Source of the DNA: an uncultured Chloroflexia bacterium
GTDB taxonomy: Bacteria > Chloroflexota > Dehalococcoidia > UBA2979
Reading direction: 5' to 3'
Length of the DNA: 64,000 bases
Assembly (NCBI GenBank): GCA_963728205.1
Contig: CAVSIV010000001.1
Coordinates: 1,152,001-1,216,000, forward strand
Position 1 is the stretch's first letter; each line of letters begins with the position of its first letter. Positions 1 to 40,439 of the stretch are shown here, piece after piece. The notes under the pieces were generated by a model. That model was not told the DNA's origin and ran no database searches. It saw only the letters and a program-made list of their open reading frames with translations. The position numbers and the translations under genes are program-made.

Positions 1-202
1 GCCAGAGCACGAGCACCGCCGTGGCGACGGTCGCGAGCGCGGCGGCCACGAGCCGCGCGCCGAGCGGCAGCGGCAGGTTGCTCACCGCGCTGTAGGCGAG
101 CGTCAGGCCGACCGCGGCGGAGAGGAGCTGCCGCATCGTGAGGCCGGCGAAGGCGCGGTCGGCGACGTTGAGATGGGTGGGGATCTCGTGGCGGCCGCTC
201 AC
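1..202 (-). CDS. PrgI/VirB3-like conjugation membrane protein, partial (runs off window)
   Basis: Manual translation VSGRHEIPTHLNVADRAFAGLTMRQLL followed by TM segments, matching the PrgI-type 'IP.....D+...GLT.RQ' pattern; GTG start overlaps the stop of the pilin gene. Confidence 0.7.
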   Translation of the reverse strand, partial: MSGRHEIPTHLNVADRAFAGLTMRQLLSAAVGLTLAYSAVSNLPLPLGARLVAAALATVATAVLVLW

Positions 203-429
203 GTGATCGCCCCCTTCACGACGCCGGCGATCGCGCGCGCGAGCAGCACGATCACGAGTCCGGTGAGCGCGTTGACGATCGCGGACTTCGCCGACTCCGC
301 CTGGCGCGGCGAGCCCGACGCCGCCATGTACATGAAGGCGCCCCACATCACGAAGAAGGCCGAGACCGCCACCGCGATGCCGGTGCCGATGTCGATCAGG
401 TTCGTGAAGAGCGTGTTGATCTGGTCCAT
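199..429 (-). CDS. TrbC/VirB2-like conjugative pilin
   Basis: 76 aa, two hydrophobic helices joined by 'G..YM.ASG.P....AK..I.NAL.GL'; T4SS context. Confidence 0.75.
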   Translation of the reverse strand: MDQINTLFTNLIDIGTGIAVAVSAFFVMWGAFMYMAASGSPRQAESAKSAIVNALTGLVIVLLARAIAGVVKGAIT

Positions 430-441
430 CTGGTTCTCCGA

Positions 442-966
442 TCAGCGGCCGCCGGATGCGGCCACGGCAGGTTGCTGTCCCAGCAGCTGGAAGTCGGCGA
501 CGAGCCAGCGCCCATCCGTGCGAACGAGCCCGAGGCTCACGTCCTGCGTCACTTGCTGGTGGACGAGCGCGCCGGACGCCGGGTCGCGCCACTCCCGGTC
601 CTGGGTGGAGCGCACGGTTGCCGCCGCGTTGCCTCCCGACAGCGCGGTGACCGTGACCGACTCGACGCGCGAGGAGCTCGTGCGCTCGGCGGCGATGGCG
701 GCGGGATCGACCGCGGCTTTCGCGACGGCGTGCTGGAGGTCGCCGGTGCTCAGGTCCGCGAGCCGCGCCGCGTACGCGCCGGCGTCCCGGAAGTCGAAGT
801 TGCCGTACGCGGCGACGAAGGAGCGGGCCGCGGCCTCGACGGCTGCACGGTCGTCCCGGCGCGCGGCGAGCCCCGACGCGCCGCTCCAGCCCGACGCGGC
901 CGCGATCGCGAGCAGCACCGCCGCGATCGCGAGCAGCGCGTACGCGGCGCCTCGCCCGCGGATCAC
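442..966 (-). CDS. VirB8/NTF2-like bitopic conjugation protein
   Basis: N-terminal TM, 'AARSFVAAYGNFDF' and C-terminal 'LVRTDGRWLV' NTF2-like strands; GTGA overlap at 963-966; fused to the SLT in the ORF track by an indel. Confidence 0.55.
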   Translation of the reverse strand: MIRGRGAAYALLAIAAVLLAIAAASGWSGASGLAARRDDRAAVEAAARSFVAAYGNFDFRDAGAYAARLADLSTGDLQHAVAKAAVDPAAIAAERTSSSRVESVTVTALSGGNAAATVRSTQDREWRDPASGALVHQQVTQDVSLGLVRTDGRWLVADFQLLGQQPAVAASGGR

Positions 967-30436: not shown

Positions 30437-30754
30437 ATGTTCGACGAGAAGAGTCGCTTCGGAGCGGCGGCGGTGGGCGTGTGGGAGCGCTCGCACCGCG
30501 AGTACGCGGGCTGGCCGCCCGCCGAACAGGCGGTCGCACGGGCCGCCATTGAGTCGCTGTCCGCGCAGCTGGCGGAGTGCGCCGATGAGCACGGGCTGCA
30601 CGAGCAGTACTGGGCCTTCGGGGATCCGCTGGGACAGGTGCTGCAGGCGCAGCTCCCGCCGGGGTTCGACCCCGAGCGGCTGCTCACGCTCGAGGAGGCG
30701 TGCCTCTGGCTGCGCCTGCTCGAGCTGCGGGGGACGCCGCCCTGTTCGACGTAG
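30437..30754 (+). CDS. hypothetical protein
   Basis: 105 aa, GGAG RBS. Confidence 0.65.
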   Translation: MFDEKSRFGAAAVGVWERSHREYAGWPPAEQAVARAAIESLSAQLAECADEHGLHEQYWAFGDPLGQVLQAQLPPGFDPERLLTLEEACLWLRLLELRGTPPCST

Positions 30755-31801
30755 CCGCAATCCGCGCCCAGCACCCGATCGCCGAGACGGTGCGCGGCGC
30801 CGGCATCGAGCTCACGCGGAGCGGGCGGCGCCTGCTGGGGCGCTGCCCGTTCCACGCCGACCGCGATCCGAGCTTCGTCGTCTACGCGGACACGAGCAGC
30901 TGGTTCTGCTTCGGCTGCAACGCCGGCGGCGACGTCATCGACTTCGTCGGCCGGCTGCGGGGCACGCCGTTTCGGGAGACGGCGGAGCGGCTCGCGACGA
31001 GCGCGCCCGCGCCGCCCGCGAACGTTGCGCCCCTCCGTCCGCGCCGAGCGCCGCCGGCGCTCGACGCGTGCGCGCTCGCGGTCGTCGAAGCCGCGACGGC
31101 GTACTACGAGCTGGCGCCGGCCGACCGTGCCGCGTGGTCGTACCTCCGCGCTCGCGGAATCGACGTGGCGACCGCGCGCCGGCACCGGCTCGGCTACGCA
31201 CGGGGCGGGCTCGCACGCCATCTCCACGACCGCGGCCTGAGCCAGGACGTGGCGCGGCAGCTCGGGCTGCTCTCCCGCGACCGCGACGCCCTGGCCGGAC
31301 GGCTCGTGGTGCCGAACCTCGACCGCCGCGGACGGGCGCGCTGGCTGACCGCTCGCGCGCTCGGCGCGGGCGAGCCGCGCTACCTCAACCTGCGCGCGCC
31401 GGTGCCGCTGCTCGGCCTGGCGCGCACGCGCGGCGTGGCGCCGCGCGGTCGTCGTCACCGAGGGACCGTTCGACTGGCTCACGGCCAGCGGCTGGGGCCT
31501 CCACAGCCTGGCGCTCCTCGGGACGCACGTCTCGCTCGACGCGCTCGCGGCGCTCCGCTCCTTCCGGCGCGTCTACGTCGCGCTCGACGCCGACGAGGCC
31601 GGCCGCCAGGCGGCCGCGCGCATCGCGGGCGAGCTGGGCGAGCGGGCGGTGGTCGTGACGCTCCCACCCGGGGCGCACGACCTGAGCGAGCTCGGAACGC
31701 GGCGCGATGGCCGCGCGGCGTTTCTCCGCTCGCTCTACCGCGCACGCGCACGGAGGCAGGGATCGTGGTCGAGATCCGCGGGCAGCGCCCGCGCCGCCTG
31801 A
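30700..31801 (+). CDS. DnaG-like primase (CHC2 zinc finger plus TOPRIM), frameshifted near 31440
   Basis: 'CPFHADRDPSF...WFCFGCNAGGDVIDF', 'YLRARGI', 'YLN', 'TEGPFD', 'LDADEAG'. Confidence 0.88.
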
Positions 31802-32427
31802 GCCGCGCCGCCCTCGAGGCGCTGCGGCAGCCGCTCGCGCCGGAGCTCGTCTCCGAGCGCACCACCGACGACGGCGAGGTCCTCCGCTACCTGGAGGGCT
31901 GGCGCGTCATCGAGCAGGCCAACGCGATCTTCGGCCACGACCGCTGGGGCGTGGAGCTCGTGGGCGAGGTCGCCTACCGCGCCGTCCCCGCGGCCGGCCG
32001 TCCGCGCGCCGAGGCCGCGGGCCTCTACACGGCGACGGTCCGCGTCACGGTCGACGGCGCGTTGCCGCACGCAGACGTCGGCGTCGGCATCGTCGCCGAG
32101 CCGACGCCGGAGGCGCACGCGACGGCCTACAAGGCGGCCGTCACCGATGCCCTCAAGCGGGCGTTCCGCCACTTTGGTCCCCAGTTCGGTGGGGACCTGG
32201 CACGGGGCGCCGAAGGCACGCCGGCGGCAGACGACCCGCCCGACGAGCTGCGCCGCCGCGTGCTCGACATCGCGGCGCGCGCCGGCTCCGACGAGGCGCG
32301 CACGCGCGAGTGGATCTCGCAGCACTACGGCTGCCCGCTCGAGGAACTCGACGGGCGGCCGCTCGCACACGCCGTGGCCGCGCTCTCCCGCGGCCTCGAG
32401 CGCCGCAACGGCCACCACGCGGCCTGA
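31765..32427 (+). CDS. Rad52/Rad22 (Sak-like) single-strand annealing protein
   Basis: 'YLEGWRVIEQANAIFGHDRW', 'KAAVTDALKRAFRHFG'. Confidence 0.85.
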   Translation: MVEIRGQRPRRLSRAALEALRQPLAPELVSERTTDDGEVLRYLEGWRVIEQANAIFGHDRWGVELVGEVAYRAVPAAGRPRAEAAGLYTATVRVTVDGALPHADVGVGIVAEPTPEAHATAYKAAVTDALKRAFRHFGPQFGGDLARGAEGTPAADDPPDELRRRVLDIAARAGSDEARTREWISQHYGCPLEELDGRPLAHAVAALSRGLERRNGHHAA

Positions 32428-36152: not shown

Positions 36153-36455
36153 ATGAGTGAACACGTGTCGGCCCGAGATGCCCGGAGCCGTTTCGCGGAA
36201 CTCACGGACCGCGTGAAGTACACGGGCGATCCGGTGATCATCGACAAGCAGGGACGCCCGTTCGTCGCCCTGATCCGCGCCGAGGACCTCGCAGTCCTCG
36301 AGCGCGCGCTCGTCGCGGAGCGGCAGGCGGCGTTCAGCCGCCTCGCCGCCGCGGCCAGCGAGCACGCGCCGGCGGCGCCCTCCGAGGAGGAGATCACCGA
36401 GGCCGTCCGCGTGACGCGCGAGGCGCTGCACCGCGAGCGCTATGGCGCTGCCTAG
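36153..36455 (+). CDS. Phd/YefM antitoxin
   Basis: 'VSARDARSRFAELTDRV...PVIIDKQGRP'. Confidence 0.88.
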   Translation: MSEHVSARDARSRFAELTDRVKYTGDPVIIDKQGRPFVALIRAEDLAVLERALVAERQAAFSRLAAAASEHAPAAPSEEEITEAVRVTREALHRERYGAA

Positions 36456-36933
36456 GCTGCGGGTCGCGCTCGACGCCAACGTCCTGATCGCCGGTACCGT
36501 CTGGCCCCGCTGGCCGCACGAAGTGCTGCGGGCGGCGCTCGGACGCCATTTCGACCTCGTGCTCCCGGAGCAGGTGGTCGAGGAGGCACGCCGGCACCTC
36601 ACCGCGCAGCAACAGGCGGCACTCTCCTATCTGCTCGACCACACGCCGCACGAGCGGTTGCCCATACCACCGCGGGCCGAGGTGCTCGCGGCGCGGGATC
36701 TCGTGCGGCACGACCCCGACGTGCCGATCGCGCTCGCCCTGCTCACCGCGGGCATCGACATCTTCGTGACGAACGACCGCGACTTCACCGACGCGGACGC
36801 CGTCGCCGGACGCTTCAGCCGCCAGGTGCGCGTGATGCTCCCGGCGGTGTTCCTCCGCGACGTGCTCGGCTGGAGCTCCGAGGCGCTCGAGGCGATCCGG
36901 TCACGCACGTGGGACGACCTTCGCGACCGGTAG
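36442..36933 (+). CDS. PIN-domain toxin
   Basis: 'ALDANVL', 'DPDVPI', 'FVTNDRDF'. Confidence 0.88.
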   Translation: MALPRLRVALDANVLIAGTVWPRWPHEVLRAALGRHFDLVLPEQVVEEARRHLTAQQQAALSYLLDHTPHERLPIPPRAEVLAARDLVRHDPDVPIALALLTAGIDIFVTNDRDFTDADAVAGRFSRQVRVMLPAVFLRDVLGWSSEALEAIRSRTWDDLRDR

Positions 36934-37252: not shown

Positions 37253-37356
37253 GCATGGCGACCTCGCACATCCGCTGCGCGGGATTCGCGGCGGCCGTCG
37301 ACGCATATGCCGCGGACGAGCGCGAGCTGTGGTTCGTCTCGCTGCTCGGCAACGTT
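37249..37356 (+). pseudogene. 5' fragment of an ICE gene truncated by lower-GC cargo
   Basis: 'VDAYAADERELWFVSLLG' followed by an abrupt composition change. Confidence 0.4.
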
Positions 37357-37507
37357 GGCTTCGAATCAAGAATCCCTTGCCTTTCTCAAGACTCGGGGCA
37401 CGAGTCACAGGCACGAGTCACGTACTTGACGGCATACGTTAGACTGCCGGCAGCCGGTAGGCCGAATCGATGCTCGAGTCAAGTGACCGACTTCCGCGAG
37501 TCAACGG

Positions 37508-38188
37508 ATGACTACCGTGCCTGTCCCCGTAATTCTCTGTGACTCCGATCCATATTCAAGATCGCAACTTCACGACATCTTCTCAGATGCGTCACACTTC
37601 GAGTTGGTCTGTGAGGTCGCGGATCCGATGGCGATACCTCCTACCGACGTGCCCTCTGTGGTCGTTATTGATCCCGCGGTCCGCAACCGGTTCGTTCCGC
37701 AAGTGCTCGAATGCGCGCACGAGCGTGCGCCAGCCGCCCAGTTGGTCGCTTATACAAGCGACTTCTCTCCGGAGTTCCTCGAGACCGCCCTCGAGGTCCG
37801 TCTCCGCGCGTACTTCCTCAAGGGGCCGGTACACGAGACCCTGCTCCCGTCCTGCGTGGAGCTCATCGGTTCTTCCGATCTCATCATCGTCGACGGATCC
37901 TTTCGCGACTGGTTCGAATCCGAACCCTGGAGACTCCGCTTTGAAGCAGCGCCTCCGTCGTCGAGAGCGCTGTCGGTACAAGAAGAAGTCATCCTGCGAT
38001 TGCTCGCAGACGGGCTCTTCGACAGTGATATCGCGCGGCAACTGTCCGTCAAGGAGACCACGGTCCGGACGCACATCAGTCGCATCGAGGAGAAGCTCGA
38101 GGCGCGCCACAGGGCGCATGCCATCGCGATTGCGATTCGGCGTGGTCTGATCGATCCGATGGCATTGGCTGCTTCTGCCGTCTTGTAG
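37508..38188 (+). CDS. NarL/LuxR-family response regulator
   Basis: Receiver-like N-terminus; 'LSVQEEVILRLLADG...IARQLSVKETTVRTHISRIEEKL'. Confidence 0.85.
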   Translation: MTTVPVPVILCDSDPYSRSQLHDIFSDASHFELVCEVADPMAIPPTDVPSVVVIDPAVRNRFVPQVLECAHERAPAAQLVAYTSDFSPEFLETALEVRLRAYFLKGPVHETLLPSCVELIGSSDLIIVDGSFRDWFESEPWRLRFEAAPPSSRALSVQEEVILRLLADGLFDSDIARQLSVKETTVRTHISRIEEKLEARHRAHAIAIAIRRGLIDPMALAASAVL

Positions 38189-38549
38189 CGGGATGTCGAC
38201 GCTGCTTGTGGCCAGACGGGCCTTGCCTTGCGATCGCCTTCCGTGCAGTCTTTGGCCCGAACCGCCCACACTGCCCTCAATCGAGGGAAGACGGGAAGAG
38301 GGAAGGGACGAGGATGACGCCAGAGAATGACCAGGCGTCTCGCCGCTACGTCTAACCGGAGACTCTTATAGCTAAATCCCGCGAGTGGATGCAGAGTTCG
38401 CGGTTTGCTTCCGCGATGGCGCGGAGGGCGATTCATGCCTGTAGCGTCGTCATCCTCATGCGTCGTGCGGGTGTTGAGCATCCATGATGCGGCTTCCGGA
38501 CGCGACTAACTGCGCTACTGGCCATGATAGCTTGGGAGACGAGAACAAG

Positions 38550-38966
38550 ATGGACACTCAGACGCGCACCGACGTCGATGGACAGTCGCTCTCTCGGCGA
38601 CGCCTCCTTGGAAAGTCCTTGGCAGCCGGGATAGCAGGGGTTGCGGCACTCGCGTTGCCTACCCAGTTCCGCGTCATCGACCGTGCGGAGGCGTCAAGCT
38701 GTACCTCTTGTGGTCCCGGGACGTTGTACTACGGCGATGCAACGTTCTGCGGATGCAGCAGCGGAGACACATGCGACCATGACCCGCTGGGCTGCTGCTC
38801 TGGCAGCCAGCAAGAAACTGGCGGTATCGTCTGCGCATGGACCTACTGTGAGTCGTGCTGGCCGGGTACCTGTTGCCATCCCGTCTACTCATTCGTGGCG
38901 TGCTGCTGCTGGGGTGCTTGTTACCCATGCGACGGCAGACAGATTTCCGCGACCCAGTATTGCTGA
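38550..38966 (+). CDS. Tat-exported cysteine-rich peptide (18 Cys in about 90 mature residues)
   Basis: 'SRRRLL' Tat motif, h-region, 'AEA' cleavage site. Confidence 0.8.
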   Translation: MDTQTRTDVDGQSLSRRRLLGKSLAAGIAGVAALALPTQFRVIDRAEASSCTSCGPGTLYYGDATFCGCSSGDTCDHDPLGCCSGSQQETGGIVCAWTYCESCWPGTCCHPVYSFVACCCWGACYPCDGRQISATQYC

Positions 38967-39008
38967 CGATCCCTCAAACAACACGTACACGCGAACAGGA
39001 TCTCAGAG

Positions 39009-39548
39009 ATGCCTCAATACGCAGCCATCACTGTAAGCAGCATCGAAGACGCGCGGGCGCTTGCGTCCTTCCCGGTCGCCATGCCTAGCTTCGTCCCGGC
39101 TGGATACGAACTGCGCTCCATCAGGCAACTGTGGCCACCCCATATCAGCGACGCCGCGCGTCAGAAAAAAGTGCATGCCGACTTCGTCGATTCGATCCAC
39201 GTCAACGCTGCGGGAGACCAGATTCTGATCACACAAGGATTCTTCGCGCGTCTGATTGGCACCGTTATGGAAGGACTCGCGCCGGCCGACAGCTCTGGCA
39301 CGCTACGCATCGGGCAGCGCGATGCGGTGTGGCTCACGGCACAGCCAATGACTCCTCCGGTACACGATGGTGCGGGCCGACGCGTCATTCCCGACTGGAA
39401 GAAGAATGCCATGACTTGCGTGGGCTGGCTCGCGGGTACGGTGCCGCCGCCCGAAGGCGGCAGAACTCCGAGCTCCAGGTACTACGCCATCGAGGCTACA
39501 GCGCTGTCGCTCGATGAAGTCATCAAGGTCGCAGAGTCCGTGTCTTAG
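39009..39548 (+). CDS. DUF4367-like hypothetical protein
   Basis: 'MPSFVPAGYEL' and 'LSLDEVIKVAES'. Confidence 0.55.
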   Translation: MPQYAAITVSSIEDARALASFPVAMPSFVPAGYELRSIRQLWPPHISDAARQKKVHADFVDSIHVNAAGDQILITQGFFARLIGTVMEGLAPADSSGTLRIGQRDAVWLTAQPMTPPVHDGAGRRVIPDWKKNAMTCVGWLAGTVPPPEGGRTPSSRYYAIEATALSLDEVIKVAESVS

Positions 39549-39565
39549 GTGGTGGTGCACTGGCC

Positions 39566-40144
39566 ATGATGCTTGATCAAGGACTAGGCGATGCGTTAGT
39601 GACCATCGCGCGTCTGTCACTTGCTTCCATCTTCTTGATGGCGGGTTGGACGAAAGCCGCAGAAGGCGAAAACTTTGTCGCGACAGTGGAAAAGTACGGG
39701 ATTCTTCCTCGTCGAGTGGTCCGTCCATTCTCCATATCGCTCCCTTGGGTCGAGTTGATCGCGAGCGCGCTGCTGTTTTCCGGATTTGAGATCCAAGTGG
39801 CGTGCGCTGTCACGGTCGCCTTGCTCGCCGCCTTCGTCTTCGCTTCGCTTACCGCGATGTCGAGAGGAGTCGCTCTGGATTGCAGCTGCTTCGGGCTGTT
39901 ATATCGCGAGCGGATCGGGTCTGCCACCGTGGCCCGCGACGCTGTCTTGCTGTGCTTGTCTGTCGCCGTCTTTGCTCTCGATGGAGGAAGGTTCTCGCTC
40001 GCAGCGTTGCTCTCGGGTACCGAAAGCGCGGCAGTAGGTGTGGCAGTCGCCGTTGCAACAGCGGCCTCATTCGCTTTGAGCGCCACGCTGGCTTCCAAAG
40101 CGACGGGCTCTGACCTTGCGGGTCAACCCGGGCTCGCGCGCTGA
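39566..40144 (+). CDS. MauE/DoxX-family membrane protein
   Basis: 'FLMAGWTK', 'LPWVEL', 'RGVALDCSCFG', 'VARDAVL'. Confidence 0.85.
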   Translation: MMLDQGLGDALVTIARLSLASIFLMAGWTKAAEGENFVATVEKYGILPRRVVRPFSISLPWVELIASALLFSGFEIQVACAVTVALLAAFVFASLTAMSRGVALDCSCFGLLYRERIGSATVARDAVLLCLSVAVFALDGGRFSLAALLSGTESAAVGVAVAVATAASFALSATLASKATGSDLAGQPGLAR

Positions 40145-40439
40145 TGTCGGGTTCAGCTCACCGACGAGCGACCCGTTGCCACCACCTCGGGACGCGTGCG
40201 ATGCCGTCGACTGCGGCGACGTGGGTCACGCGGAGCAAGACGCGGTTCTGGAGCGAGGCGGGCGGCACCAAGCAGGGTACCTCCAGCGAGCTGCGGACGC
40301 GCGTGATGAGGCGTCGGAGACGGCCGTCCCGCAAAACTCCATTGCGGCCGAGAAAGGGGGGTCCGGGGTTGGTGGGGGGGAGGGCTCGTCTCCGTGCAGT
40401 TCCGCGACGGTTCCGAGGCTGCGAAACCCGAGCGAGATC

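Follow-up and report, generated by a model that had tools for sequence, protein, structure and literature searches.

How does a putatively secreted protein in which one residue in five is a cysteine acquire its fold, and what does a MauE-family membrane protein encoded two genes downstream contribute to it? The question is raised by a four-gene cassette in a 64,000-nucleotide stretch of DNA (the window; contig CAVSIV010000001.1 of assembly GCA_963728205.1, positions 1,152,001 to 1,216,000 of the forward strand) from an uncultured Chloroflexia bacterium. The cassette encodes, in this order, a LuxR/NarL-type regulator, a precursor with a twin-arginine translocation (Tat) leader and a Cys-rich mature part, a protein without an export signal (the middle protein) and the MauE protein (Table 1). 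We favour, with slightly better than even confidence in all of its parts taken jointly, a reading in which the cassette is a compositionally foreign, horizontally acquired operon that makes a secreted, disulfide-knotted mini-protein.

According to this reading, the conserved twin-arginine leader would target the precursor to the Tat translocase and would be cut off after AEA. The cassette's MauE would pair the 18 Cys into nine disulfides through its CSC motif. Most likely the signal-less middle protein, with its predicted peptide-binding type of fold, would be a cytoplasmic binding partner of the precursor, serving the unfolded Cys-rich chain as a holdase or proofreading chaperone or else leaving with it through Tat as a passenger ('hitchhiking'). 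The LuxR/NarL-type regulator would probably govern expression.

The recognition of MauE as a major disulfide-forming enzyme is very recent, and the cassette brings together a probable oxidase of this kind, an obvious substrate with nine predicted disulfides and a helper within 1.6 kb. It makes testable how MauE gains access to a substrate when no thioredoxin partner is at hand, in which direction its active site points and why Cys-rich proteins of this sort take Tat, the export route for folded proteins. The peptide itself is a new, very rare and, by prediction, disulfide-dense scaffold that soil bacteria carry on mobile DNA, with a possible part in competition or signalling. When roles are considered one by one, competition or antimicrobial action is a tentative choice for the mature peptide, a structural or other function is an equally tentative one, and signalling is rather less probable than either.

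Table 1. Features of the cassette and of the island that holds it, in window positions.
Feature	Position	Strand	Description
Precursor ORF, 160 aa	38484..38966	+	Likely start Met at 38550, giving 138 aa
Tat signal peptide	38550..38693	+	SRRRLL ... AEA; TIGR01409, conserved AxA-type site
Mature Cys-rich domain, 90 aa, 18 Cys	38694..38966	+	C-terminal motif CCW-G-A-C-Y-P-C-D-G-R-x7-C, TGA stop
Middle protein, signal-less, 179 aa	39009..39548	+	Predicted RseB/MucB C-domain-like (DUF4367-like) fold; own ribosome-binding site
MauE-family membrane protein, 192 aa	39566..40144	+	PF07291; CSC active-site codons 39881-39889
LuxR/NarL-type regulator, 226 aa	37508..38188	+	C-terminal GerE helix-turn-helix; divergent receiver-like N-terminal domain
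Low-GC island holding the cassette	37340..40400 (boundaries approximate)	.	GC and GC3 contrast

A rare family of Cys-rich peptides

The initial annotation of this locus, made from the sequence alone, had described a precursor with an SRRRLL signal, an AEA site and a mature part of 90 aa that contains 18 Cys and 3 Trp and ends in Cys, and each of these features held on recounting. The 18 Cys that follow AEA make up 20% of the mature part and include two CC pairs and one CCC cluster; there are 2 His, and the peptide is acidic (7 Asp/Glu versus 1 Lys/Arg), unlike typical cationic antimicrobial peptides. The NCBIfam model TAT_signal_seq (TIGR01409) scores the precursor at 17.6-17.9 bits against a cut-off of 16.7 and is matched by all six full-length members of the family described below. 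The family profile also aligns with the Tat leader of NosZ (nitrous-oxide reductase) in the PDB, and TatC is encoded in the host genome (G000; 197 bits). Judged by its signal and the host's machinery, the precursor is a putative Tat substrate whose export would depend on that pathway. Pfam gave no match on the precursor, and among NCBIfam models only the Tat-signal model matched.

An exhaustive phmmer search with the precursor against 1.84 billion representatives returned four matches at E <= 1e-3, three of which are true relatives of 130-144 aa (P0002-4). The remaining match, P0001, was rejected as a family member, being a repeat protein that aligns only over the leader. A profile search contributed two more members (P0007 and P0008). 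The six distinct members share the Tat leader SRRxxIGxSLAAG...FLP, an AxA-type site, a CC pair and the C-terminal motif CCW-x(2-3)-C-x-P-C-D-x-R-x7-C, and the columns CC, P, CCW, C-x-P-C-D-x-R and terminal C are invariant throughout the family. The Cys number varies between members (18, 12, 16, 20, 12 and 14) and is even in all six, as expected if every Cys were paired in a disulfide.

Further relatives are scarce. A word-seeded search with the precursor yielded 98 candidates and no significant one, the single protein as query found no family member in 98 other genomes of the order, and the family profile found none in 400 sampled genomes of the phylum. A pattern search of genome contigs based on P0004 gave 597 matches, without a relative among them. 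When the C-terminal motif was back-translated and scanned against DNA, the contigs of species-representative genomes gave 23 stretches, all of them chance out-of-frame occurrences, and metagenome contigs gave 36, one of which is a true member (L056). A look-up of the mature part in a protein atlas returned no usable match, and the literature that we searched (here and below, with subscription journals outside its coverage) held no description of this peptide family. By these comparisons the family is new, distinct, conserved and very rare. The initial annotation had allowed that the ORF might lack conservation; a six-member family with an invariant motif was found instead, and homologues that keep both this motif and the gene order mark the precursor ORF as a real gene.

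A peptide with CC and CCC clusters and this share of Cys could alternatively bind a metal or a cluster, for instance as a metallothionein-like protein or a copper or iron-sulfur carrier that folds around its metal in the cytoplasm and would for that reason be routed through Tat, with MauE being redox-protective or having no direct role. Tat is typical for cofactor-bearing cargo, and the cassette's MauE has a faint resemblance to HvfX, the NCBIfam model for maturation of Cu-binding peptides of the RiPP type (ribosomally synthesised, then modified post-translationally), with E 0.05 and 13.8 bits, far under the cut-off of 80. However, a Cys number that is always even and ranges from 12 to 20 is easier to reconcile with paired disulfides than with a fixed metal site, the enzyme linked to the peptide comes from an oxidase family and has its CXC motif intact, the mature part offers only 2 His and no known metal-binding family was matched. 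We regard metal binding as quite improbable.

The Tat leader, the many Cys and the adjacent MauE also recall MauA, and the peptide could be a divergent quinocofactor small subunit whose large subunit is encoded elsewhere, carrying tryptophan tryptophylquinone (TTQ) or cysteine tryptophylquinone (CTQ) as do MauA or the gamma subunit of quinohemoprotein amine dehydrogenase (QHNDH). The Trp of CCW is indeed invariant, and Trp shows partial conservation at a second position. The likeness to mau clusters, in which MauA stands with MauE and MauD, is that of a small Cys-rich protein with a Tat leader that would, by analogy, depend on its adjacent MauE. MauA has about 130 aa and 12 Cys; the mature peptide of the cassette is shorter and Cys-richer, and the two have no sequence relation. 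The amine dehydrogenase light chain model (PF02975) matched none of seven family sequences at E <= 10, nor the window protein at E <= 0.1, and PDB searches by sequence and by family profile recovered no MauA chain, only Tat-leader matches to NosZ. Within the 89%-complete host genome no MauA, MauB or MauG was found (MauB with PF06433, no match at E <= 1; MauG with PF03150, no match at E <= 0.01). The island holds no dehydrogenase gene, the cassette holds no MauD, and where a thioredoxin partner would be expected in a mau cluster, the cassette has its signal-less RseB-C-like protein. A quinocofactor subunit is very improbable, in keeping with the initial annotation, which had judged the peptide not to be MauA and had noted the absence of MauB and MauG.

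The MauE of the cassette as a candidate thiol oxidase

The cassette's MauE matches PF07291 at 83.3 bits (cut-off 27) over residues 10-136, and the CSCFG motif reported for it in the initial annotation lies at residues 106-110. The conserved Lys (AGWTK, first transmembrane segment) and Glu (PWVE, second transmembrane segment) of MauE proteins are both present. A recent preprint describes CXC-Phe-Gly, together with a conserved Lys and Glu, as features of this family, and the cassette copy shares them; MauE proteins from two phyla were found to replace DsbB in Escherichia coli, with the CXC motif being essential (Gonzalez et al., bioRxiv 10.64898/2026.03.05.709764). The same source finds MauA in only ~10% of MauE-bearing species, and the cassette's MauE, without a MauA, sides with the other ~90% (bioRxiv 10.64898/2026.03.05.709764). 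By analogy with these homologues, the cassette's MauE is probably a DsbB-like, quinone-linked thiol oxidase.

The host encodes other candidate disulfide enzymes. One is a 511-aa protein (G000:C1:581135-582670; L003 394-1929, minus strand) that joins a MauE domain (CNCFG) to two thioredoxin-like domains (CGPC and CGFC). VKOR is also present, on contig 6. VKOR and the MauE-thioredoxin fusion are probably the host's housekeeping disulfide system, and the MauE of the cassette would consequently be an additional copy, moving together with the peptide. In this respect it differs from the MauE described in the preprint, which acts as a housekeeping oxidase (bioRxiv 10.64898/2026.03.05.709764), in that it lies on a mobile island and would be tied to one substrate.

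Precursors with a MauE of their own have a precedent. Using decRiPPter on Streptomyces, three candidate RiPP families with MauE were described, one of them also with MauD; the MauE-linked precursors contain at least 8 Cys, their genomes have no other mau genes, and disulfide maturation is proposed for them (PMC7794033). The cassette is alike in having MauE beside a short Cys-rich precursor and no other mau genes. The Streptomyces precursors are different in being ~60 aa long with short leaders, without a twin-arginine and without CCW...PCDxR, in a comparison made by eye, and no middle gene is described for them (PMC7794033). A MauE private to one peptide is therefore not a new theme, since both the MauE-linked Cys-rich precursors (PMC7794033) and the action of MauE as a DsbB-like oxidase (bioRxiv 10.64898/2026.03.05.709764) have already been described. 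The new family of disulfide-rich secreted peptides that the initial annotation proposed is borne out as a distinct, conserved family, but peptides of this kind were already described in Streptomyces (PMC7794033). What is new here is the peptide family and its middle-protein helper. As the initial annotation also stated, no RiPP-modifying enzyme is adjacent: among the ORFs scanned in 26672-51059 there was no radical SAM, YcaO, lanthionine, MNIO or similar enzyme, and MauE was the only one found.

The leaders show a further feature. By eye, those of the family carry a hydrophobic-hydrophobic-Pro motif (FLP, FVP, ALP) ~8-14 residues before the AxA site, and the Streptomyces MauE-linked leaders have a similar LVP, FVP or VLP just before an Ala-rich site (PMC7794033). 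The motif may be a shared recognition element.

Linkage of peptide, middle gene and MauE across genomes

Conserved linkage to MauE had been proposed as a check in the initial annotation, and the same gene order was found in one other family locus. On the 1448-base metagenome contig L056, a peptide C-terminus identical to that of P0007 comes first, then a middle-protein homologue of 180 aa and then MauE. The L056 MauE (98-687, minus strand) carries DCSCFGLLYRE and is read as two overlapping frames that split just before DCSCFG, owing to a frameshift or to an error of assembly. In both loci the peptide and the middle gene share a reading frame across a spacer of 39-42 nt that contains no further stop (window 38964-39011; L056 1258-1300, minus strand). 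Stop-codon read-through joining the two proteins was considered and rejected: one peptide gene ends in TGA and the other in TAA, no relation is seen between the spacers and the middle genes each have a ribosome-binding site of their own, and the shared frame is consequently taken as a coincidence.

A wider search with the window's MauE matched 59 of 400 genomes of the class at E <= 1e-8, and none of the 25 genomes of the host's own family. The two best matches among the 400, at 36-38% identity, both lie in one genome (G792), and each belongs to a trio of a Tat-leader Cys-rich peptide, a signal-less protein and MauE (L111, G792:C15, 2846-4506; L082/L112, G792:C38). One trio is intact and adjoins a gene for an XerC-like integrase; the other is degraded and adjoins recA, its peptide gene being frameshifted and its MauE gene containing a stop. 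The intact peptide has 12 Cys and a terminal Cys, and its signal-less companion has 183 aa, versus 142 aa read from the degraded copy. The G792 peptides match the family profile over their leaders (94% probability, E 9e-8), whereas their cores do not align to it.

We examined 29 MauE loci with 1.5 kb of flank each. Three of them hold a convincing Tat-leader Cys-rich ORF and one holds a middle-type domain; other Cys-rich frames at these loci were judged by eye to be out-of-frame noise. Two further good MauE matches belong to another conserved module, whose 14-Cys peptide differs from that of the cassette. At L085 (G699:C19, 523-3264) a Tat-leader protein of 303 aa, MauE and an AhpC/TSA-type thioredoxin are followed by a 14-Cys Tat-leader peptide, and the thioredoxin is a membrane-anchored, MauD-like protein confirmed by Pfam. 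At L084 (G821:C58) a closely similar 14-Cys Tat-leader peptide adjoins MauE.

The middle protein, a predicted outer-domain fold without an export signal

Only two close relatives of the middle protein exist in the databases searched, P0006 (49% identity) and the protein on L056 (48%). Pfam found no match, MucB_RseB_C included. The initial annotation had called the protein DUF4367-like; a language-model look-up does lead to clusters in which 20-25% of members have DUF4367, and the predicted fold resembles RseB/MucB C-domains, but none of the three middle proteins matches PF14285 (DUF4367) at E <= 10. The AlphaFold2 model built from a three-sequence alignment has a mean confidence (pLDDT) of 85. 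Comparison of this model by VIA-align gave Z 8.8 for MucB and Z 8.4 for RseB, in both cases over their C-domains (~95 residues), and Z 7.8 for the immunity protein Tsi3; these scores (Z 7-9) lie within the range that VIA-align calls common for unrelated proteins. Foldseek with the same model gave no match at E <= 1e-3.

The resemblance has independent support from sequence: a profile built from the three proteins detected eight distant homologues in 4 of the 400 class genomes. Three of the eight begin with a GerE helix-turn-helix, followed by a transmembrane segment and then the domain. Another two have an anti-sigma-like N-terminus, a transmembrane segment and a MucB_RseB_N/LolA-like domain ahead of it, an architecture that is Pfam-confirmed for L073 and judged from the translated frame only for L074. 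In the last three a transmembrane or lipoprotein-like signal precedes the domain. A hydrophobic segment before the domain is thus found in all eight distant homologues (19-residue Kyte-Doolittle 1.73-2.93) versus none of the three cassette copies (maximum over 19 aa 1.27-1.32; window protein 1.28). The GerE-type proteins are L067 and L071, in tandem on G799:C51, and L068 on G620:C25; they read as membrane-bound GerE/LuxR one-component regulators with one transmembrane segment, in the order helix-turn-helix, transmembrane segment, Cys-x3-4-Cys pair and RseB-C-like domain as in the middle protein. Genome G766 has one anchored protein with this domain as the divergent neighbour of a MauE (37% identity to that of the cassette).

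By its model, the middle protein may share the fold (Z 8.4-8.8) of the C-domain of RseB/MucB and of the outer domains of DUF4367-type anti-sigma factors, and it has distant homologues that sit behind a MucB_RseB_N/LolA-like domain. It differs from both in being stand-alone, signal-less and linked to MauE, and it has no Pfam match to either. As read from these sequences, a domain normally outside the cell occurs in the cassette without an export signal, beside a gene with a Tat leader. The predicted fold and the absent signal suggest an escort or binding partner for the precursor rather than a receptor or immunity factor. Two simplest readings follow, which we infer: the protein could be a cytoplasmic escort or proofreading chaperone, or it could be co-exported through Tat as a passenger.

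For the second of these there is a described parallel. In the Burkholderia glucose dehydrogenase, the gamma subunit is a small Tat-leader protein that carries a signal-less partner (PMC6719666), and the cassette is alike in having the only Tat leader on a small protein beside a signal-less partner. The Burkholderia passenger, however, is a large cofactor enzyme whose binding is seen in a crystal structure (PMC6719666), whereas binding by the cassette's middle protein is putative. The literature searched held no description of a MauE-linked RseB-C-like protein.

The regulator and a possible signalling loop

The C-terminal part of the regulator matches Pfam GerE at 50.3 bits (cut-off 23.5; residues 154-209). 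NarL, MctR and similar NCBIfam models cover its full length at 37-41 bits, with equivalog cut-offs of 250-300. Pfam Response_reg gave no match at E <= 0.1, the receiver-type Asp/Asp/Thr/Lys positions are a by-eye assignment, and no histidine kinase gene adjoins the regulator. On the basis of the low GC that they share, the regulator probably controls expression of the cassette with which it lies on one island. The contig of L056 ends before the position that an upstream regulator would occupy.

The presence of a LuxR-family regulator on the island, together with the company that the middle domain keeps elsewhere (the outer part of membrane GerE-type regulators in three of the eight distant homologues and of RseB-like, anti-sigma-like proteins in two), raises another explanation, in which the peptide would act as a signal outside the cell, with the middle protein and the regulator as the sensing arm of an autoregulatory loop. 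A middle protein with neither signal nor anchor, however, could encounter an exported peptide there only by being co-exported itself. We see only a small chance for such a loop; the gene contents of G792, taken up below, also speak against it.

Weighing the reading

Several results weigh against the secreted, disulfide-knotted mini-protein that we favour. The structure prediction for the precursor was unusable (pLDDT 41), and, the peptide not being amenable to modelling, its disulfide knot is deduced from Cys counts alone. The kept order of peptide, middle gene and MauE comes from one locus, L056 being the only other family locus with readable context. In hhalign comparisons the G792 middle proteins showed no significant similarity to the window family (probability 1-3%), and their recurrence beside a Tat-leader peptide and MauE is therefore architectural, with homology not proven. 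No LuxR gene adjoins either of the G792 trios, which counts against the regulator's link to the cassette as well as against a signalling loop. To these are added the Z-scores of the middle protein, whose range has been given above, and the absence from the cassette of a thioredoxin-like partner of the MauD/DsbA type, through which MauE is thought to act.

The orientation of MauE is the remaining difficulty. The loops on the CSC side of the cassette's MauE carry 10 Lys/Arg versus 1 on the opposite side (10/11), and those of the G766 MauE carry 13 versus 3 (13/16). By the positive-inside rule, these counts would place the CSC loop in the cytoplasm, the count being a crude heuristic with transmembrane limits set by eye from hydropathy. 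This conflicts with the preprint, in which the CXC motif of the two tested MauE proteins is periplasmic by TOPCONS and in which these proteins complement an E. coli dsbB deletion, which needs a periplasm-facing site (bioRxiv 10.64898/2026.03.05.709764). The charge distribution of the cassette's MauE thus weakly favours a topology opposite to that of the preprint's MauE.

Taken at face value, an inward-facing loop would mean that oxidation comes before export. The peptide would be oxidised at the inner face of the membrane while the middle protein holds the 18-Cys chain, and the finished knot would leave through Tat, perhaps bound to its escort. Such a sequence of events would explain both the Tat leader and the cytoplasmic helper: a Tat leader is present in all six family members even though Sec might in principle serve a small disulfide-rich protein, and all three copies of the middle protein are signal-less. 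If true, it would explain Tat leaders on related Cys-rich peptides and would extend to MauA. However, the cytoplasm is a reducing compartment, and, with the complementation data also opposing it, we consider folding inside the cell to be unlikely.

The low-GC island and its mobile-element surroundings

The lower-GC four-gene cassette of the initial annotation is confirmed in both extent and composition, with all four ORFs found where it had placed them. GC is 0.58-0.62 over 37500-40000 versus 0.70-0.79 in the flanks, and GC3 is 0.65-0.70 in the four cassette ORFs versus 0.86-0.91 in neighbouring genes. A repeat search gave no convincing repeats flanking the island, and a consensus scan for promoters and terminators gave 0 sites. 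One DNA sequencing run of a soil metagenome contains short contigs that match portions of the window identically, and it may be the source sample.

Upstream of the island lie genes for a primase-Rad52 fusion, ArdC, RadC and a Phd/YefM-PIN pair, and downstream of it lie DUF6788 and a transposase-like ORF. The fusion is an ORF of 575 aa (30700-32427) in which a DnaG-type primase, with a CHC2 zinc finger and the N-domain of the catalytic core, is joined to a Rad52/Rad22-type annealing domain; the ArdC- and RadC-like genes come after it. The primase-Rad52, ArdC and RadC group looks like the replication and establishment module of an integrated element. Directly 5' of the island is a type II toxin-antitoxin pair (36153-36933), in which the Phd/YefM antitoxin (39 bits) overlaps the PIN toxin (25.8 bits).

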